DNA of 32,000 nucleotides from Alkalilimnicola ehrlichii MLHE-1 (GTDB taxonomy: Bacteria; Pseudomonadota; Gammaproteobacteria; Nitrococcales; Halorhodospiraceae): the NCBI RefSeq assembly GCF_000014785.1, contig NC_008340.1, positions 720,001 through 752,000 of the forward strand. Reading direction: 5' to 3'. The notes below the pieces were generated by a model, which was not told the origin of the DNA, did not search any database, and saw nothing but the letters and a program-made list of their open reading frames with translations. This document shows, in pieces, positions 1 through 32,000 of this stretch. The position numbers were made by a program, and so were the translations under genes. Within the stretch, counting starts at the first letter, position 1. Each line of letters starts with the position of its first letter.

Positions 1-223
1 AGCCGGAATCGAACAGGATGACGGCCAGCGCCAGGCTGCCGACGAGGTAGGCCAGATCGGCATCGTTGAAGACGAACCCCAGCCCGTCCTCTCCGGCGAT
101 CAGGCCGATGCAGAGGAAAACCAGCAGCAGGGGCGCGCCGAAGCGAAAGGCGATCACCGAGGTGAACACCGAGAGGGCGATCAGGCCGGCCCCGATCAGG
201 ATGAGCGGATAGATCCAGTCCAT
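1..223 (-). CDS. Monovalent cation:proton (K+/H+) antiporter, NhaP2/CvrA-like, N-terminal fragment; the gene runs off the left edge of the window
   Basis: Absent from the ORF track because it is open at the window edge. Reverse complement from the ATG at 223-221 reads MDWIYPLILIGAGLIALSVFTSVIAFRFGAPLLLVFLCIGLIAGEDGLGFVFNDADLAYLVGSLALAVILFDSG. It has two hydrophobic helices and the G.P.L..FL.IG.(I/L)AG.DG.G...F.......SLAL..IL.D.G pattern I recognise from the N-terminus of E. coli CvrA/YcgO-type CPA1 antiporters. Confidence 0.7.
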   Translation of the reverse strand, partial: MDWIYPLILIGAGLIALSVFTSVIAFRFGAPLLLVFLCIGLIAGEDGLGFVFNDADLAYLVGSLALAVILFDSG

Positions 224-352: not shown

Positions 353-703
353 GTGACGGCGAAACTCCTGGTGGCGGTCATCGCCGATGAACTGGAAGAG
401 CGGGCTGTGCGGATCGCGAGGGAAGAGGGGGCCCGCGGGGTCACGATACTCTCCGGTCGCGGTATCGGTTTTCCCGAACGCATCACCTTCTTCGGCCTCA
501 CCTACCGGGGCCTTACCAAGATCCTCCTTTGGGTGCTGCCCGACGCGGCCGCGGAACTCATCTCCGAGCGCCTCAACCGCGAACTCGACCTGATCAAGCC
601 CGACCAGGGCCTGGCCTTCGTCCTGCCGGTGAGCGAGACCGGGGGGATCGACGTGGAGGCCATCCGCCGGGAGATCATTGCCGGCACCCGGGCCGACGAT
701 TGA
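353..703 (+). CDS. PII-like (GlnB-fold) small signalling protein, paralogue 1
   Basis: ORF track 314..703. I prefer the GTG at 353, which sits just after GGAAGGAGAGGG (339-350) and gives VTAKLLVAVIADELEE. This is co-linear with the N-terminus of the paralogue at 2261 (MKFAVLVAILAEDLEE). The product is about 116 aa, and both paralogues share the loop GRGIG-x5-TFFGLTY-G. Confidence 0.8.
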   Translation: MTAKLLVAVIADELEERAVRIAREEGARGVTILSGRGIGFPERITFFGLTYRGLTKILLWVLPDAAAELISERLNRELDLIKPDQGLAFVLPVSETGGIDVEAIRREIIAGTRADD

Positions 704-752
704 CCGTCGACCTTTCCGCTCATCCCACGCGAGCTAAGAAGACAACGAATCA

Positions 753-2264
753 GTGAATCAGCTCAAGGAATTTTACGGGATACTCAAGCACGCCTTCCGC
801 AACCTGCTGCCGATCATTGCGGTGGTGGCCTTCTTCCAGTTCGTGGTGATGCAGGAAGTGCCCGAGGGCATGATGTCCATGGTGCTGGGCCTGGGCATCG
901 TGGTGCTGGGTGTGGCGCTGTTCCTGCAGGGGCTGGAACTGGGCATCTTTCCCATCGGCAAGAACATCTCCAACGAGTTCGCCAAACGGGGCTCGCTGCC
1001 CCTGCTGATGGTCTTCGGCTTCTGCCTGGGGTTCGCGGCGGTGATCGCCGAACCGGCCCTGATCGCGGTGGCGGATCAGGCGGAGGTGATCAGCGAGGGG
1101 CGGGTGAATGCCTTCACCCTGCGGTTGCTGGTGGCCGGTTCCGTGGGCGCGGTGGTGGCCCTGGGCGTGGTGCGCATCATCCTGGGGCACAGCCTGCACT
1201 GGTACATGATCATCGGCTATATCATCGTGGTTGCCGTCACCTTCTTCTCGCCCGAGGAGATCGTGGGCCTGGCCTACGACTCCGGCGGGGTGACCACCAA
1301 CATCGTCACGGTGCCGCTGATCGCCGCCCTCGGTATCGGGCTGGCGGTCTCCCTGCGCGGGCGCAACGCCCTCACCCACGGCTTTGGCCTGGTGGCGCTG
1401 GCGGTGATGGTGCCCATGATCACCGTGCAGCTCTACGGCATCATGGTCTACACCTTCGGCGAGACGGGCGATGTGGCCGCCAATGGGCTGCAGATGGAGG
1501 CCGAGACCGAGGGGGTGGCCGATCCGGTGGCCGGCAGCGTGCTGCTGGGCATGCTCACGGATCTGGGGCTGATGGTGCGGGACGTGTTGCCTATCATCGG
1601 GGTCATCCTGATCTTCCAGTACCTGGTCATCCGCAAGCGCATCGCCCACCTGCACAAGGTCGTCGCCGGCTTCGTGCTGGTCATCGTCGGGCTGTACGCC
1701 TTCGTGGTGGGGCTGAAACTGGGGCTGTTCCCCATCGGCGAGCGCATGGCCGAGCAGCTCATCGCCCTGGAGGGCTTCTTCTGGCTCTACCTCTTCGCCT
1801 TCACCATCGGGTTTGCCACCACCATGGCCGAGCCGGCGCTGATCGCCATCGGCGACAAGGCGGAGGAGGCGGCCAAGGGCAAGCTCAAGGGCAACGTGAT
1901 CCGGCTGCTGGTGGCGGCCGGGGTGGCCATTGGTATCACTATCGGGGTGCACCGGATCATCACCGGCGACTCCATCCACTACTACATCATGGCCGGTTAT
2001 ACCCTGGTGATTCTGCTCACCTGGTTGTCGCCCAAGTACATCGTGGCGCTGGCCTTCGATCTGGGCGGGGTGACCACCTCCGAGGTCACCGTGCCGCTGG
2101 TCACCGCCCTGGGTATCGGGCTGGCCACCCACATCGAGGGGCGCAGTGTCATCATCGACGGCTTCGGGCTGATTGCATTCGCGTCGATCTTCCCCATCAT
2201 CACGGTAATGCTCTACGCCATCGCCGTGGAGCGCATCGCCAAGGCGAGAGGAGTGCAGACATGA
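753..2264 (+). CDS. Polytopic membrane protein of the DUF1538 family, internally duplicated (two halves of about 245 aa)
   Basis: 503-aa ORF with a GTG start, hydrophobic throughout. The halves align by eye: AEPALIAVADQAE / AEPALIAIGDKAE, DSGGVTTNIVTVPLIAALGIGLA / DLGGVTTSEVTVPLVTALGIGLA, and LPIIAVVAFFQFVV / LPIIGVILIFQYLV. The GTG start at 753 is supported because the N-terminus aligns with the start of the second half. The family name is from memory of this motif set. Confidence 0.85.
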   Translation: MNQLKEFYGILKHAFRNLLPIIAVVAFFQFVVMQEVPEGMMSMVLGLGIVVLGVALFLQGLELGIFPIGKNISNEFAKRGSLPLLMVFGFCLGFAAVIAEPALIAVADQAEVISEGRVNAFTLRLLVAGSVGAVVALGVVRIILGHSLHWYMIIGYIIVVAVTFFSPEEIVGLAYDSGGVTTNIVTVPLIAALGIGLAVSLRGRNALTHGFGLVALAVMVPMITVQLYGIMVYTFGETGDVAANGLQMEAETEGVADPVAGSVLLGMLTDLGLMVRDVLPIIGVILIFQYLVIRKRIAHLHKVVAGFVLVIVGLYAFVVGLKLGLFPIGERMAEQLIALEGFFWLYLFAFTIGFATTMAEPALIAIGDKAEEAAKGKLKGNVIRLLVAAGVAIGITIGVHRIITGDSIHYYIMAGYTLVILLTWLSPKYIVALAFDLGGVTTSEVTVPLVTALGIGLATHIEGRSVIIDGFGLIAFASIFPIITVMLYAIAVERIAKARGVQT

Positions 2265-2608
2265 AGTTCGCAGTGCTAGTGGCCATCCTGGCCGAGGACC
2301 TGGAAGAGCAGGCCATCGACTCGGCCAAGCAGGCCGGGGCGGGTGGCGTCACCATCCTGGACGGGCGGGGTATCGGCACCAAGGAGAAGAAGACCTTCTT
2401 CGGGCTGACCTATGAGGGCAGTCAGTCGGTGCTGGTCTTCGTGCTGGAGAAGAAGCTGTCGGTGAAGGTGCTCAAGCAACTGACCAAGGATTTGGACCTG
2501 AACTCGCACAGCAAGGGGGTGGTGTTTACCATACCGCTGGAGCATATCGCCGGCATCGATACGGCGCAGGTCCAGAAGTTCGAATCGCAGATCAAGGACG
2601 AGCTTTAA
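2261..2608 (+). CDS. PII-like (GlnB-fold) small signalling protein, paralogue 2
   Basis: 115-aa ORF. Its ATG overlaps the DUF1538 stop in an ATGA junction (2261-2264), which suggests translational coupling. It is clearly paralogous to 353..703 along its whole length. Confidence 0.85.
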   Translation: MKFAVLVAILAEDLEEQAIDSAKQAGAGGVTILDGRGIGTKEKKTFFGLTYEGSQSVLVFVLEKKLSVKVLKQLTKDLDLNSHSKGVVFTIPLEHIAGIDTAQVQKFESQIKDEL

Positions 2609-2635
2609 AACCCGCCAAGAGCGTCAGGAGCCGAC

Positions 2636-3025
2636 ATGCTGGTTAAAGACATCATGAGAGAGGATGTGGTCACTATCTCCCCGCTGGCCACCATCCGTGA
2701 GGCCATGAAGCGGATGAAGGACCACGGGGTGAAATCCCTGGTGGTGGAGAAGCAGGGGCCGCACGATGCCTACGGCATTATCACCTACACCACGATCCTG
2801 CGCACCATCGTGGCGGAAGAGGGCGATATCGACCTGATCAACGTCTACGACGTCTGCACCAAGCCGGTGATCTCGGTGAGTGGCGAGCTGGAGTGCAAGC
2901 ACGTGGCCCAGCTTATGGTGCGCCAGCAGTTCCGGCGGGTGGTGGTGCTTAAGGACAACGAACTGCGGGGCATTATCACCCGCAACGACATCGTGCGCCC
3001 CATCCTGGAGATTGCCGAGCAGTAG
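2636..3025 (+). CDS. Stand-alone CBS-domain pair protein
   Basis: 129 aa, with a GGAG-type RBS at 2626-2629. It contains two CBS repeats: VKDIMREDVVTISPLATIREAMKRMKDHGVKSLVV, and DVCTKPVISVSGELECKHVAQLMVRQQFRRVVVLKDNELRGIITRNDIV. Confidence 0.85.
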   Translation: MLVKDIMREDVVTISPLATIREAMKRMKDHGVKSLVVEKQGPHDAYGIITYTTILRTIVAEEGDIDLINVYDVCTKPVISVSGELECKHVAQLMVRQQFRRVVVLKDNELRGIITRNDIVRPILEIAEQ

Positions 3026-3055
3026 GCAGCGATCTCACGCGAGGAGAGTGTGTGT

Positions 3056-3658
3056 ATGGTCAGCGACAGAGCGCCGGCTGGGGGCGATTCTTGGCGCCGC
3101 CAGGGCTGGGACCAGCGCTACCGGCAGGCCGAGCCCGGCTCTGCCGCGGCCGTGCTGGCGGACAACCTGCACCTGCTGCCGCCCCGGGGGCGGGCGCTGG
3201 ATCTGGCCTGCGGGTTAGGCAGCAACGCCATGCTGCTGGCTGGCGCCGGGCTGGAGACCGAGGCCTGGGATTACTCGCCGGTGGCGCTGGAACGGCTGAT
3301 GGAGCGCGCCAGGCGCCAGGGGCTGGCTATCACCCCCCGCGAGCGCGACGTGGAGCAGCACCCGCCGCCGGCGGTGTCCTTTGACGTGATCGTGGTGGCC
3401 CACTTCCTCCACCGGCCCACCGCGCCCGATTTGTTCCGGGCCCTGCGCCCGGGTGGGGTGCTGTTCTACCAGACTTGGAGCCGGGCGCGGGTCTCCGACG
3501 CCGGCCCGTCCAACCCGGCATTCCGCCTGGCCGAGGGGGAGCTGCTGACCCTCTTCGCGGGCCTGCGGCCGCTGCTGTACCGCGAGGAGGGGGACCAGGG
3601 CGATACCACCCAAGGCCTCCGCGACGTCGCCTGCCTGGTGGCCCGCAAGCCTGCCTGA
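3056..3658 (+). CDS. Class I SAM-dependent methyltransferase (TehB-like by motif I)
   Basis: ORF track 3050..3658 (GTG); the first ATG is at 3056. Motif I region ALDLACGLGSNAMLLAGAGLETEAWDYSPVALERL and post-I/II region FDVIVVAHFLH...LRPGGVLF. Substrate unknown. Confidence 0.75.
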   Translation: MVSDRAPAGGDSWRRQGWDQRYRQAEPGSAAAVLADNLHLLPPRGRALDLACGLGSNAMLLAGAGLETEAWDYSPVALERLMERARRQGLAITPRERDVEQHPPPAVSFDVIVVAHFLHRPTAPDLFRALRPGGVLFYQTWSRARVSDAGPSNPAFRLAEGELLTLFAGLRPLLYREEGDQGDTTQGLRDVACLVARKPA

Positions 3659-3675: not shown

Positions 3676-4392
3676 TGTCACGTGGCAAGGGCCACCCCCC
3701 GTTACTGCGAGCGGGGCCCCACCCCCACCGTCACTGCGAGGAGGCGAAGCCGACGTGGCAGTCCACCGCCCTGGATCGCCACGGGCCTTCGGCCCTCGCG
3801 ATGACGGTGGGGGTGCCTCCCCCGTCACTGCGAGGAGCGAAGCGACGTGGCAGTCCACCGCCCTGGATCGCCACGGGCCTTCGGCCCTCGCGATGACGGT
3901 GGGGGTGCCTCCCCCGTCACTGCGAGGAGCGAAGTGACGCGGCAGTCCACCGCCCTGGATCGCCACGGGCCTTCGGCCCTCGCGATGACGGTGGGGGGGC
4001 CTCCCCCGTCACTGCGAGGAGGCGAAGCCGACGTGGCAGTCTACCGCTCTGGATCGCCACGGGCCTTCGGCCCTCGCGATGACGGTGGGGGTGCCTCCCC
4101 CGTCACTGCGAGGAGGCGAAGCCGACGTGGCAGTCCACCGCCCTGGATCGCCACGGGCCTTCGGCCCTCGCGATGACGGTGGGGGTGCCTCCCCCGTCAC
4201 TGCGAGGAGCGAAGTGACGCGGCAGTCCACCGCCCTGGATCGCCACGGGCCTTCGGCCCTCGCGATGACGGTGGGGGGGCCTCCCCCGTCACTGCGAGGA
4301 GGCGAAGCCGACGTGGCAGTCTACCGCCCTGGATCGCCGCGGGCCTTCGGCCCTCGCGATGACGGGTGGGGCGCCCCCCTCGCGATGACGAC
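3676..4392. repeat. Tandem array of a 92-94-bp unit: 7 full copies starting at 3731, 3825, 3917, 4009, 4103, 4197 and 4289, with degenerate partial copies at both ends
   Basis: Period measured from recurrences of TCACTGCGAGGAG, with offsets of 94, 92, 92, 94, 94 and 92. Unit example 3825-3916: tcactgcgaggagcgaagcgacgtggcagtccaccgccctggatcgccacgggccttcggccctcgcgatgacggtgggggtgcctcccccg. Each unit contains imperfect hairpins ATCGC..GGGCC-ttc-GGCCC..GCGAT and GACGG.GGGGG-tgc-C.CCCCCGTC, plus a weaker CGTCAC...GTGACG / ACTGC...GCAGT hairpin. There are no unique spacers. Confidence 0.95.
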
Positions 4393-15662: not shown

Positions 15663-15756
15663 GTGTGAAGCTCCTCCGGTCACGGCCCGTTTGGGATGGC
15701 GCCGCCGCATCGGCGTGTGGGGGCGGCGGGGCCCTGGCAATGGGCCTGTATCCTTA

Positions 15757-15784
15757 ATTGTACCCGGCTTTTTCGTTATGAAAA
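15757..15784 (-). promoter_or_regulatory. Candidate sigma70 promoter for the REC/exonuclease genes (minus strand: TTTTCA - 16 nt - TACAAT)
   Basis: This is the only AT-rich patch in the 150-nt gap between the DUF294 gene stop and the REC start. The match was made by eye and is weak at -35. Confidence 0.25.
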
Positions 15785-15812
15785 TGCGGTATCGCCCGTG
15801 ATCCCGGCGGGG

Positions 15813-17690
15813 TCAGGCCCCGAACCGGGCGTGCATGTTCTCCTGGAAGCGTTTGATGACCCGCATGGCCAGGGTGAGGCTCTGGCGCGCCAGGGGATGG
15901 AGATCGTCCGGCGCCACCAGTTTGTCCAGTGGCTCCCCGGCCTCGCACTGGGCCAGTTGGTGGGAGAGCAGCAGGTCGAGCAGGTCCTCGTGGGCGGCGA
16001 TGATCGACTCGGCCGCATCAGCGCTGAGCACGCCCTGCCGCACCAGCGCGTGTACCCGCCCGCACGTGTTGGTCTCCTGAATCCCGGCTGCTACCGCATG
16101 GACCCGGGCGCAGTTGGCGATGATGCGCAGGCCCTGGCGTTTGATGTCGATCTTGCCGCGGTTGGCGCCTCGATCCGGGGTCACCAGGCGGTTGAACAGC
16201 CCCAGCGGCGGTCGACCCTCGGCATCGTCCATGGCCAGGGCCCGCAGCGCCCTCGGGTGGGTTGGCAGGGTGTCGAGGACGTGGCGCCAGAGGCTGTCCA
16301 CCAGCCGGTCCTCGCCGTAGAGCAGCTCGAAGTCGAGCACGATGTTGCTCCAACGGGCCGCCTTGCTCCCGGGGTACTGGGCGGCACGGGTAAAGCTGGT
16401 CTGCCATTCCTCAAGGGTCTTCTGGTAAGCGGGGTTACGCGCCATGATCTCGCCCGGGCAGATGGCGTAGCCCACCTCGCCCAGGTTGACATTCACCCGG
16501 TCGCAGAAGGTCTCGAACCACTGTTTCTCCGCCGCCGACAGTGGCCCCGGCTCGTCATCGATGATGATGCCGTTGTCCTGGTCGGGCTCGAACAGCATCT
16601 CCCGGCGCCCCCCGGAGCCCATGATGATGAGCGCATAGGGGCGTGGCGCCGTGCCGTGGCCCTCGCGCTGGATCTCCTCCAGGGTCAGGTCAATGCAGCG
16701 CCTTTGCAGGGCGAGGTGGAACTCGCTGATCACCCAGGCTGCCTGGCTGGCGTCGCGATGGCTTTCGAAGGCGTCGCGCACCACTTTGCCGGTGTTGCGG
16801 TAGAGGCGCTGGAGCTGTTTCAGGTTGCCGGCGTTGTAGGCCAGCTCCAGGGCGGTGCTCTCCTGCATCAGCAGGGCGCGGAGGATGTTGGTCTGTGACA
16901 GCATGCCGGCGGGTTTGCCCTCGTCCATCACCACCAGGTATTTCTGGCGCAGTTCCGACTGCAGGGCCTCGGCCTTCCACAGGGGGGTGTCCGGGCTGAT
17001 GGGGATGGTCGGCCGGGTGATGCTGCTGATCGGTGCGGACGGCGGGTAGCCGGTGCCCAGCACCGCGTGCGCCAGGTCCGGCGCCGTGACCAATCCGAGC
17101 AGGTTGCCGTCCGGGGCCATGACCCCCATCGAGCCGATGCAGCGGGCCTGCATCTCGCCGTGTACCGACATCAGGGTGTCGGTGCTGCGGCAGGTGGCCA
17201 GGGGGCTGTTCATCGCCGTCCGCACCGGGCGTGCCAGCGCACCGGTGGGGGCCTGATTGGCGTAGCTGCGGGCGCGGATGCGCTGGGTGATGACCTGCTC
17301 GAGGGCATCGTGCAGGCCGGGGTGCGCCTCCTCCAGCGCCCGCACGCGCTGAAAGGGGACCACGGCGAGCTGCGCGGGCCGGGTGACCACGGCGGTTGCG
17401 CTGTAGGGTTGATTGTCCAGGTAACTGGAGATGCCCAGCAGGCAGATGGCCTCGCGCAGCGCGGTCTCGCCGTTGGGGTAGACCAGGTCGGCGGCCCCCT
17501 CGAGCAGCACGAACAGCGCGCCGGGGTCGGCTTCGCCCAGCCGGAACAGGGTGTCGCCGGGTTCGGCGTGGCGGATCTCGGCATCCTGGATGAGGGTACT
17601 CAGCGCCGCCGGGTCCATGTGGTGCAGGGGGCGGCTCTTGGCCAACTCGGTGATATCGGGCGGTGCCTGCCCGCCGGCGTCTTCGGCCAT
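15813..17690 (-). CDS. cNMP-binding - CBS pair - DUF294 nucleotidyltransferase - DUF294_C signalling protein
   Basis: 625 aa with RBS GGGGAGAA. The N-terminal cyclic-nucleotide-binding-like barrel contains IRHAEPGDTLFRLGEADPGALFVLLEGAADLV. Two CBS repeats follow. The pol-beta-type NTase motif is YALIIMGSGGRREMLFEPDQDNGIIID, and the C-terminus is a helical substrate-binding-like region. Confidence 0.85.
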   Translation of the reverse strand: MAEDAGGQAPPDITELAKSRPLHHMDPAALSTLIQDAEIRHAEPGDTLFRLGEADPGALFVLLEGAADLVYPNGETALREAICLLGISSYLDNQPYSATAVVTRPAQLAVVPFQRVRALEEAHPGLHDALEQVITQRIRARSYANQAPTGALARPVRTAMNSPLATCRSTDTLMSVHGEMQARCIGSMGVMAPDGNLLGLVTAPDLAHAVLGTGYPPSAPISSITRPTIPISPDTPLWKAEALQSELRQKYLVVMDEGKPAGMLSQTNILRALLMQESTALELAYNAGNLKQLQRLYRNTGKVVRDAFESHRDASQAAWVISEFHLALQRRCIDLTLEEIQREGHGTAPRPYALIIMGSGGRREMLFEPDQDNGIIIDDEPGPLSAAEKQWFETFCDRVNVNLGEVGYAICPGEIMARNPAYQKTLEEWQTSFTRAAQYPGSKAARWSNIVLDFELLYGEDRLVDSLWRHVLDTLPTHPRALRALAMDDAEGRPPLGLFNRLVTPDRGANRGKIDIKRQGLRIIANCARVHAVAAGIQETNTCGRVHALVRQGVLSADAAESIIAAHEDLLDLLLSHQLAQCEAGEPLDKLVAPDDLHPLARQSLTLAMRVIKRFQENMHARFGA

Positions 17691-29716: not shown

Positions 29717-29901
29717 GGGGGCAAGGGCCTCCTGTTCAGACGGCAATCGCGGACTATAATGGGCCGCTATTGTACCGGCTCCGCGGCCGTGAGGCCGCCC
29801 CGGATGACCCGATTTGTACAGGCCCGGCCCGCCCGACGCCGGCTCTGCTGCATCTCTCAGGCACCCGACACGCCCCGGATCCCGATGGGCCAAAGCGCCA
29901 A

Positions 29902-32000
29902 ATGCGACTGAAGAAGATCAAGCTCTCCGGCTTCAAGTCCTTCGTCGACCCGACCCAGGTGGCCATGCCCGGCGACCTGGTGGCGGTGGTGGGACCTAAC
30001 GGCTGCGGCAAATCCAATATCATCGACGCGGTGCGCTGGGTGATGGGTGAGAGCTCCGCCCGCCACCTGCGCGGCCAGTCCATGGCCGACGTCATCTTCA
30101 ACGGATCGACCGCCCGCAAACCGGTCAGCCACGCCTCGGTGGAGCTGGTGTTCGACAACAGCGATGGCCGCCTGGGCGGGCAGTACGCCCAGTACGGCGA
30201 GATCGCCGTGCGCCGCCAGGTCAACCGCGAGGGGCAATCGCAGTATTTCCTCAACGGCACCCGCTGCCGGCGTAAGGACATCACCGACGTCTTTCTGGGC
30301 ACTGGGCTGGGGCCGCGCGGCTACACCATCATCGAGCAGGGCATGATCTCGCGGGTGATCGAGGCCCGGCCCGAGGAGCTGCGCGTCTATCTGGAGGAGG
30401 CCGCCGGCATCTCCATCTACAAGGAGCGCCGGCGGGAGACCGAGCGGCGTATCCGCGATACCCGCGAGAATCTGGAACGGCTGGAGGACGTGCGCGAGGA
30501 GGTGCGCCGCCAGTTGGAGAAGCTGCGCCGCCAGGCCGAGGTGGCCCGCCGCTACCGGGAGCTGAAACAGGCGGAGCGGGATACCCGGGCCGAATTGATC
30601 ACCCTGCGCCAGGCCAGCCTCAAGGCGCAGCTCGAGGAACAGGAGGCGGTGATCGCCGCCAAGGTCAATGCCCGCGAGTTCGCCCTGGCCACCCAGCGTC
30701 AGGCCGAGCGGGAGATCGAGGCCATCCGCGCCACCCAGGGCGAGGCCGGCGACCGGCTGAACGCCATTCAGGCCGACTATTACGGCGTGGGCAGCGAGAT
30801 CGCCCGCATCGAGCAGCAGATCAGCCACCGCCGCGAACTGCGCGACAAGCAGTTGCGGGAGCTGCGTGACAGCGAGGGGGAGGTGCAGGCGCTGGAGCGC
30901 GGTCTGGAGGAGGACCGGGAGAAGCTGGCGCTGCTGGAGGAGCGCCTGGAGGCCCTGCAGCCGGAGCAGGAGGAGCAGGCCCAGTCGGAGGCCTTCGCCC
31001 AGGAGGCGCTGGATGACGCCCGCGACCGGCTGGAGGCCTGGCGCGAGGCCCGCGAGGGCTTTCAGCGCGAGCGGGCCGAGGCCGAGCGTGCCGAGCAGGT
31101 GGAGAAGGTGCGGGTGGAGGGGCTGGAGCGCCGCGCCGACGAACTGGCGCGTCGCCTGGAGCGGTTGGAGGTCGAGTACGAGGCCGAGGACCTGTATGCC
31201 CTGGAACAGGCCATCGGCGACCTGGAGGCGGAGGAGACTGAGCTGGCCGAAGAACTGGCCGGGATGGACGAGGCCCAGGCCGATGTGGCCGAGCGACTGG
31301 AGAGCGACCGGGCCCAGGCGACCGAGCTGGCGGACAAGCTGGAGGCGCTGCGCGGCGAGCTGCATCAGCAGCGCGCCCGCCTCGCCTCGCTGGAGACCCT
31401 GCAGCAGTCGGCGCTGGGTGAGGACGGGGGGCCGCTGGAGGACTGGCTGAGTGCCCGGGAATGGCAGCAGCGCCCGCGCCTGGCCCAGCAGCTGGTTGTC
31501 ACCCCCGGCTGGGAGCGCGCGGTGGAGACCGTGTTGGCCGAGGGGCTGCAGGCGGTGTGCGTGCGCCCCGAGGAGCTGGAGGGCGCCGCCCGGGAGTTGC
31601 CGGAGCAGGGCGATCTCACCCTGGTCAGTGCCGGCGCGGTCGCTTCAGGCGGTGCTGGCGGCGGCGACTGGCTCGCCGACCAGGTGCGGGACGACGGCCG
31701 CACCGCCGCGCTGTTGGCCGGGATCCGCTGTGCCGATGACCTGCCCACCGCCCTGGCACGCCGTGGCGAACTGGCCGCGGGTGAATCCTTCATTACCCCG
31801 GACGGTGTCTGGCTGGGCGCCAACTGGCTCCGCCTGCGAGCCGGCGACGACGCCGAGCGGGGGGTGATCGCCCGTGAGCGGGAGATCCACCAGCTCCGCG
31901 ACCGGGTGGCCGAGGGCGAGGCGCGGCTGGTGGAACGGGAGGAGGCGCAGGACCGCTTGCGGCAGGCCGTCCGCAGCCTGGAGGAGGAGCGCGAGGCGCT
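29902..32000 (+). CDS. smc: Chromosome partition protein SMC, N-terminal ~700 aa; continues past the right edge of the window
   Basis: Absent from the track because there is no stop in the window. My own translation from the ATG at 29902 reads [69 protein letters not shown] (Walker A head), followed by long E/R/L/A-rich coiled coil. Confidence 0.92.

Follow-up and report, generated by a model that had tools for sequence, protein, structure and literature searches.

Positions 353 to 3,025 of a 32,000-nucleotide stretch of the Alkalilimnicola ehrlichii MLHE-1 genome (contig NC_008340.1, positions 720,001 to 752,000 of the forward strand; hereafter the window) hold four closely packed genes, in which a membrane protein of the DUF1538 family is flanked by two PII-like proteins and followed by a stand-alone pair of CBS domains. 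The gene for the first PII-like protein, PII-like-1 (353-703, +; 116 residues), is separated by a 49-nucleotide gap from that for the fused double-DUF1538 membrane transporter (753-2264, +; 503 residues). The gene for the second, PII-like-2 (2261-2608, +; 115 residues), shares the four nucleotides ATGA with the end of the transporter gene at 2261-2264, with GAGAGGAG upstream of the overlap, and is translationally coupled to it in this way; the CBS gene (2636-3025, +; 129 residues) follows after 27 nucleotides and has AGGAG ahead of its start. The positions and spacings of these open reading frames agree with the four-gene operon proposed in an initial annotation, which had been made from the sequence alone, and the domain identities given there are borne out by a Pfam scan. 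DUF1538 (PF07556) is matched at 441.5 bits in two full-length copies (gathering cut-off, 22.6 bits), the P-II family (PF00543) at 27.1 bits in PII-like-1 and 31.2 bits in PII-like-2 (cut-off, 25 bits), and the CBS family (PF00571) at 88.6 bits over two stretches, one for each copy of the domain.

The start of PII-like-1 is the GTG at 353, six bases 3' of the Shine-Dalgarno sequence AAGGAGAG; an ATG in the same frame at 314 is an improbable start. This Shine-Dalgarno sequence closes the divergent intergenic region (223-352, +) between PII-like-1 and the K+/H+ antiporter gene on the minus strand, where the operon presumably has its promoter. A scan of the window for sigma-70 consensus promoters returned no sites, and the promoter is thus putative. 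Terminator-like sites in the window were no more frequent than expected by chance, and an Rfam scan of the window gave no matches.

The conservation of this arrangement was surveyed in a genome scan, with one genome per species, seeded by an alignment of seven sequences; neighboring open reading frames were called and then searched with hidden Markov models (HMMs) built from the window proteins. The scan returned 80 loci with a fused DUF1538 gene at 52-80% identity, carried by Gamma- and Betaproteobacteria, Campylobacterota, Actinomycetota (Kocuria and Arthrobacter) and one Peribacteria genome. A PII-like protein is encoded directly 3' of the transporter gene, or fused to it, in 76 of the 77 informative loci. 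It is a separate gene in 57 of these, mostly with a four-nucleotide overlap, and is joined in frame to the transporter in the other 19, each of which encodes a single protein of 615-678 residues. The CBS pair comes next in nearly all of the unfused loci with enough downstream DNA (53/56) and in none of the fused ones (0/19); beyond DUF1538, PII and CBS, no further neighbor is conserved in the surveyed genome loci.

PII-like-1 is found upstream of the transporter gene in only two of the 76 loci, from Ectothiorhodospira and Azoarcus. Separate look-ups placed it there also in Thioalkalivibrio thiocyanodenitrificans, Aquisalimonas and Azoarcus taiwanensis, in the last of which its gene overlaps the transporter gene by 4 nucleotides; the PII-like-1 orthologues found upstream of DUF1538 are 61-65% identical. 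PII-like-1 is therefore a rare, lineage-specific extra copy. The initial annotation had read the locus as a transporter served by up to three sensors and had called for a survey of the PII-DUF1538-PII-CBS order: the downstream PII-like and CBS positions proved to be conserved, while the upstream PII-like position did not, and the three-sensor layout fails as a conserved unit, the core of which is the transporter with its downstream PII-like protein, usually accompanied by the CBS pair.

Several individual loci carry other arrangements. Of the informative genome loci only one, from Candidatus Peribacteria (L076), has a fused DUF1538 gene but lacks any PII-like gene within 6 kb, and in a Pseudomonas sp. 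a 170-residue protein with two ACT domains is encoded upstream of DUF1538-PII-CBS, in the place of PII-like-1 (L001:3722-4234). Genes for cation transport recur beside the module without being conserved; they include a KefC-like protein with Na_H_Exchanger and TrkA domains in Azoarcus (L086:6327-8291) and a P-type cation ATPase near the module in Aquisalimonas (L085:931-3591). A K+/H+ antiporter gene adjoins the module in the window (222..1, -) and in four survey loci. The open reading frame in the window encodes the N-terminus of this divergently transcribed neighbor, and its match to PRK05326 (100.7 bits over 74 residues) confirms the earlier assignment as a potassium/proton antiporter.

The association with PII-like proteins extends to DUF1538 systems in which the two halves of the transporter are separate genes. 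When metagenomes were scanned with a split UmpA-like protein as the query, 56 loci were recovered with two DUF1538 genes each, the first typically of 244-262 residues and UmpA-like (about 330-370 bits) and the second typically of 255-273 residues and UmpB-like (about 300-330 bits). The next gene encodes a PII-like protein in all 50 informative loci, and a CBS gene follows in 43 of 45. More distant members of the family, at about 30% identity, were taken from annotated plasmids and chromids. In Methylocystis and Chelativorans two DUF1538 genes are followed by an annotated P-II gene; in Paraclostridium, Peptoclostridium and Vescimonas a fused DUF1538 gene is followed by an annotated 'P-II family' protein of 222-224 residues, which consists of two PII-like domains in tandem (L088:4572-5240, L089:4572-5240 and L091:4717-5391). 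No CBS gene adjoins DUF1538-PII in these distant Alphaproteobacteria and Firmicutes. Further distant C-terminal PII fusions occur among the cluster representatives (P0242, P0317, P0333 and P0380). The conserved core is thus the transporter with a PII-like protein, to which the CBS pair is a subfamily addition, and two PII units per transporter have arisen at least twice, as a separate paralogue in the A. ehrlichii lineage and as a tandem domain in Firmicutes. As the link is kept across phyla, gene fusions included, the earlier suggestion that the PII-fold and CBS proteins are functional partners of the DUF1538 transporter is sustained, and we hold it with high confidence.

The same collections contain some unusual architectures. 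One 724-residue protein (P0244) has a double DUF1538 with a C-terminal cytidylate-kinase-like/AAA nucleotide-binding domain at the position where PII sits elsewhere. In a DUF1538 subfamily that comprises P0260, P0266, P0310, P0318 and about 20 further representatives of 600-736 residues, the second repeat carries an insert of about 80-100 residues, and no PII or CBS domain was detected in the chain. Downstream of one split DUF1538 pair, PII-like and CBS domains share a 264-residue open reading frame (L162, about 1650-2450), which is either a real PII-CBS fusion or the product of a frameshift in the metagenome contig. The tandem PII-like protein of the Firmicutes raises the question of its oligomeric form. 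An apparent transporter-PII-CBS triple fusion of 759 residues (P0391) turned out to be three DUF1538 units on a short contig and was not used.

The two PII-like proteins of the window are 42% identical to each other (E 6e-31). An AlphaFold2 model of PII-like-2, with a predicted local distance difference test score (pLDDT) of 80, has the beta-alpha-beta-beta-alpha-beta order of the superfamily and a flexible loop of low confidence at residues 36-42. Foldseek matched this model to GlnB/GlnK, CPII, TTHA0516 and SbtB, all with a probability of 1.0 and with no subfamily preferred, and together with the Pfam scores this upholds the PII fold assigned to the small proteins in the initial annotation. 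The loop described there as common to both paralogues is likewise real, although its spelling was one residue short: the sequence reads GRGIG-x5-TFFGLTY-x-G and not GRGIG-x5-TFFGLTY-G. The T-loop segment of PII-like-2 (residues 36-56, RGIG..EKKTFFGLTYEGSQS) hardly varies among 62 homologues, which is what an interaction loop would show.

In canonical PII proteins, residues Q39, K58, K90, R101 and R103 hold Mg-ATP and 2-oxoglutarate. When the PII-like proteins are aligned to the canonical Aquifex PII (2eg1), the glycines of the B-loop and of the T-loop base are retained, and all five of these effector residues give way, in the order listed, to K or P, E63, V87, G98 and D100. Of these replacements, G98 and D100 do not vary within the PII-like family, and E63 and V87 vary very little. 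Tested by these residues, the proteins are not canonical members of the GlnB/GlnK type, so that binding of an effector in the canonical manner is unlikely; the proposal that they are adenine-nucleotide sensors finds no support here. The labels 'P-II family nitrogen regulator' and 'transcriptional regulator', under which NCBI annotates the small proteins, are probably misleading for these genes.

The CBS protein is a generic pair, with stand-alone or tandem CBS proteins as its best solved relatives. Its second motif, GIITRND, is of the G-h-h-T-x-x-D ribose-binding type. Against the CbpB model (NF041630) it scores 33.2 bits, far below the cut-off of 125, and it is not a CbpB/DarB equivalog; the PII-like proteins have no Pfam match other than PF00543 at E values up to 0.01, and hence no match to the DarA/PstA family. 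These results leave the analogy drawn in the initial annotation to the cyclic di-AMP (c-di-AMP) receptors DarA and DarB unsupported.

The transporter itself belongs to a family with a published activity. The genes umpA and umpB were cloned from Halomonas zhaodongensis and encode DUF1538 proteins, both of which are needed and which form a hetero-dimer (Meng et al., 2017; PMC5484666). UmpAB rescues Escherichia coli KNabc on NaCl, on LiCl and at alkaline pH, and in everted vesicles it shows pH-dependent Na+(Li+,K+)/H+ antiport (PMC5484666). NCBIfam models exist for both subunits, and the statement that DUF1538 has no experimentally assigned function was wrong: the published function of UmpAB refutes the headline claim of the initial annotation, that of an uncharacterized family, by the very kind of finding that the annotation had itself named as refuting. 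Further, DUF1538 is among the key Pfam features for pH adaptation in a machine-learning study of 2026 (PMC13255231).

The window protein is identical at every residue (100%) to the transporter on record for A. ehrlichii MLHE-1, and its two halves are 45% identical to each other (E 1e-63). Against the UmpA model (NF041627; equivalog cut-off, 490 bits) the protein scores 443 bits summed over two stretches, the best at residues 11-231, and against the UmpB model (NF041628; cut-off, 500 bits) 394 bits summed over two stretches, the best at residues 273-493. The N-terminal half is thus best matched by UmpA and the C-terminal half by UmpB, in the same A-then-B order as in UmpAB. Because both scores lie below the cut-offs, the protein is assigned by these models to a fused sister subfamily and not to the UmpAB equivalogs. 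Fused homologues from Halomonas and Marinobacter have the same scores against the two models as the window protein, for which reason the Halomonas fused genes were rejected as UmpAB orthologues. The window protein and UmpAB share a Pfam family, two homologous units of seven transmembrane helices in A-then-B order and haloalkaliphilic hosts; they differ in that UmpAB is a split heterodimer, whereas the A. ehrlichii protein is one fused chain of 503 residues that falls below the equivalog cut-offs. PII or CBS partners are unmentioned in the UmpAB paper, in which the 4.2-kb clone stopped at umpB, and the UmpAB subclone was active in E. coli without any PII or CBS gene (PMC5484666), which fits the PII and CBS proteins as regulators and not as obligatory subunits. 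We infer PII and CBS partners for UmpAB itself solely from the UmpAB-like metagenome loci.

An AlphaFold2 model of the transporter (pLDDT 80.3, predicted template modeling score 0.80) has helices broken at two AEP motifs and two D-x-GGVTT motifs. The acidic residues E100, D176, E360 and D436 are invariant across the DUF1538 family, down to 23% identity; helix breaks and invariant intramembrane acidic residues are typical of ion-coupled carriers. A sequence search of the PDB with the transporter found no relative, and Foldseek gave no match to the model at E values up to 0.001, with template modeling (TM) scores of up to 0.23. At the Foldseek sensitivity used, SbtA-, NhaA- and AmtB-like folds were rejected, and the modeled fold is without a solved representative in the PDB.

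The membrane topology was approached through the net charges of equivalent loops in the two halves, compared across 133 sequences. Loop 1-2 has a net charge of -0.5 in the first half and +2.3 in the second, loop 5-6 has -0.7 and +0.9, and loop 6-7 has +1.2 and -1.1; for the linker between the halves and for the C-terminus of the transporter the net charges are -3.4 and +1.8. As equivalent loops are opposite in charge, the positive-inside rule suggests a 7+7 inverted repeat with the N-terminus inside, the acidic linker outside and the basic C-terminus inside. A cytoplasmic C-terminus would agree with the C-terminal fusion of the transporter to a cytoplasmic PII domain in other genomes.

Taken together, these observations lead us to propose, with a probability of roughly 0.7, that the DUF1538 (UmpAB) family protein of the operon is a secondary cation/proton transporter and that the small proteins encoded with it are its dedicated cytoplasmic regulators. 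By homology with UmpAB, the transporter would exchange Na+ (Li+, K+) for H+, an assignment of substrate in which we have moderate confidence. Such an antiport activity fits both the nearby genes for cation homeostasis and the habit of A. ehrlichii, a haloalkaliphile from Mono Lake. The four invariant acidic residues at the helix breaks (AEP twice and D-x-GG twice) would form the site for cation and proton. The PII-like protein, probably a trimer, would dock on the cytoplasmic face through its T-loop (GRGIG-x5-TFFGLTY), which would plug or release the transporter in the manner of GlnK on AmtB and SbtB on SbtA, in response to an effector that is presumably other than the canonical pair of Mg-ATP and 2-oxoglutarate. 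The one-to-one fusions of PII and transporter imply equal stoichiometry, and if the PII domain trimerizes, the transporter would also be trimeric. PII-like-1, as an extra paralogue, would provide two PII units per transporter in this lineage. The CBS pair may be a second input, for an adenosine nucleotide or for ionic strength, with the free PII-like protein as its probable target; the presence of the CBS pair where the PII-like protein is free, and its absence where that protein is tethered, suggests as much. For the details of gating by the PII and CBS proteins our confidence is low to moderate.

Certain points weigh against this proposal. The window protein lies below the UmpA and UmpB cut-offs and belongs to a sister subfamily, and its substrate could therefore differ from that of UmpAB, whose own assignment comes from one heterologous study. 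The binding and gating of DUF1538 proteins by PII, and transport by the window protein, are predictions, and the inverted topology is likewise predicted from the positive-inside rule alone. As K58, K90, R101 and R103 are replaced, the ligand logic of GlnK and SbtB cannot simply be carried over to these PII-like proteins. Finally, the lack of a CBS gene in the fused systems may reflect a single clade and not a mechanism.

The substrate is where the most serious alternative lies. The module might be a PII-gated transporter of bicarbonate (Na+-coupled, as in SbtA/SbtB) or of another carbon- or nitrogen-related solute, the Na+/H+ phenotype of UmpAB being then a side activity or specific to its subfamily. 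Many carriers are alkaliphilic or sulfur-oxidizing autotrophs (Thioalkalivibrio, Halothiobacillus, Guyparkeria, Sulfurimonas and Sulfurovum), the window protein is not a UmpAB equivalog, CPII and SbtB, which bind bicarbonate, are among the structural neighbors of the PII-like protein, and all characterized transporter-linked PII proteins control carbon or nitrogen uptake (preprint 10.1101/2023.08.10.552651). The family is, however, equally present in heterotrophs (Halomonas, Marinobacter, Arthrobacter, Kocuria and Clostridia), its only experiment gives cation/proton antiport (PMC5484666), the transporter model resembles neither SbtA nor AmtB in fold, and the neighborhood has no conserved genes for carboxysomes, RubisCO or nitrogen assimilation; we consider a substrate of this kind improbable. 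A different reading reverses the direction of control: the membrane protein, as a sensor or transceptor, would sequester the PII-like and CBS proteins or release them, as signal outputs, towards other cytoplasmic targets. It is common for a PII protein to have several targets, the sequestration of GlnK at the membrane has downstream effects of this kind, and genes for GGDEF/EAL signaling proteins lie just downstream of the module in some relatives. In many genomes, however, PII is covalently joined to the transporter, which prevents its release to distant targets, and no candidate target gene is conserved in the neighborhood; we give this reading only a slight chance.

Still less probable is the scheme of the initial annotation, in which a channel or transporter for K+ or osmotic homeostasis would be gated by three sensors of the c-di-AMP type, with a DarA-like role for the PII-like proteins and a DarB-like role for the CBS pair. 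The folds are indeed those of DarA and DarB, and a K+/H+ antiporter gene adjoins the operon, but the scheme is at odds with the CBS protein's score of 33 bits against a CbpB cut-off of 125, with the match of the PII-like proteins to PF00543 only and with the lack of conservation of the third sensor, PII-like-1; to our knowledge, diadenylate cyclases are also uncommon in Gammaproteobacteria. That the genes adjoin by chance, with the small proteins as general regulators of nitrogen or metabolism in line with their NCBI labels, is hardly credible in the face of co-occurrence in 76 of 77 and 50 of 50 loci, four-nucleotide overlaps, recurrent fusions, conservation across phyla despite varying flanks and the replacement of the canonical PII effector residues; chance adjacency is effectively refuted by the neighborhood survey. 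The reading of the operon as a cation/proton transporter with dedicated PII and CBS regulators is the one that we retain.

Comparison with AmtB-GlnK reveals a common plan, with a transporter gene followed by a PII-family gene in one operon, an ancient pairing that crosses phyla and a conserved T-loop as the likely plug. The AmtB membrane fold, by contrast, is unrelated to the DUF1538 model, with no Foldseek match between them; the DUF1538-linked PII proteins lack Q39, K58, K90, R101 and R103; and the DUF1538 module has a CBS protein in addition and, in some cases, a further PII unit. The SbtA-SbtB system, a cyanobacterial Na+/bicarbonate symporter with its regulator, likewise has a non-canonical PII-like protein dedicated to one transporter, and both SbtB and the CPII of carbon-concentrating operons of chemoautotrophs match PII-like-2 with a Foldseek probability of 1.0. 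This match is no better than that to canonical PII, however, and the partner in all loci is DUF1538 and not SbtA or DabAB, so that genetic linkage sets the PII-like proteins apart from the SbtB/CPII type; no SbtA or Dab neighbor is conserved in the surveyed loci. The DUF1538-linked PII-like proteins have no R-loop, and the substrate of DUF1538 is probably a cation/proton pair. Association of a CBS pair with a membrane transporter is shared with OpuA, MgtE, ClC and the stand-alone CbpB/DarB; the pair in A. ehrlichii is a separate protein of 129 residues, whereas in OpuA, MgtE and ClC it is a domain of the transporter.

Downstream of the CBS gene, a TehB-like S-adenosylmethionine (SAM)-dependent methyltransferase gene (3050-3658, +) begins 24 nucleotides past the CBS stop codon with its own Shine-Dalgarno sequence and may be co-transcribed. 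It was rejected as a fifth member of the operon because it is not conserved after the CBS gene in relatives, which have GGDEF/EAL, CHASE-GGDEF, KefC-like or short-chain dehydrogenase genes in its place. Between the methyltransferase gene and an aminotransferase-like open reading frame lies a tandem array (3728-4371), in which a 92-bp unit is repeated 6.9 times (95% matches) and which gives rise to several spurious overlapping entries in the list of open reading frames; the unit forms a long predicted hairpin (DNA, -28.7 kcal/mol; z-score -3.8) and has no Rfam match. The remainder of the window (6956-31365) looks ordinary and encodes a PAS-GAF-GGDEF-EAL protein, two large histidine kinases, a sigma-54 response regulator, an RNase T-type exonuclease whose N-terminal region is long, a sodium:solute symporter, an acetyl-CoA synthetase and a GluQ-type tRNA-synthetase paralogue. 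The open reading frames at 15696-16898 and 29857-31365 have no Pfam match.

The gene families themselves, the activity of UmpAB and the principle that a PII protein can plug a transporter are already known. Our literature search, which did not extend to subscription-only papers, found no description of a link between DUF1538 and PII or CBS proteins, and four features appear to be undescribed: DUF1538 is almost universally paired with a PII-like subfamily of its own, fusions of the two recur, a CBS protein is a third partner and the canonical effector site is lost. The most ambitious interpretation would make DUF1538-PII a third ancient transporter-PII pair beside AmtB-GlnK and SbtA-SbtB, spanning at least four phyla, with a membrane fold absent from the PDB, a non-canonical PII effector and, in its strongest version, a carbon- or nitrogen-related substrate such as bicarbonate in place of Na+/H+. 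We regard this as doubtful; if the carbon or nitrogen substrate were true, the module would be an unrecognized uptake system of alkaliphiles and sulfur-oxidizing autotrophs.

Few signal transducers are as widespread as the PII proteins, and the transporters that they have so far been found to gate handle nitrogen or inorganic carbon. A PII-like protein hard-wired to a family of cation/proton antiporters would, if true, extend the 'valve plug' principle to ion and pH homeostasis, and the loss of the canonical ATP/2-oxoglutarate site would point to a different effector. The natural PII fusions are well suited to structural work on a membrane fold without a solved relative. Overall, the operon represents a well-supported and testable regulatory module on a structurally unexplored transporter, and for the DUF1538/UmpAB family the PII/CBS module offers a testable explanation of how its activity is controlled.

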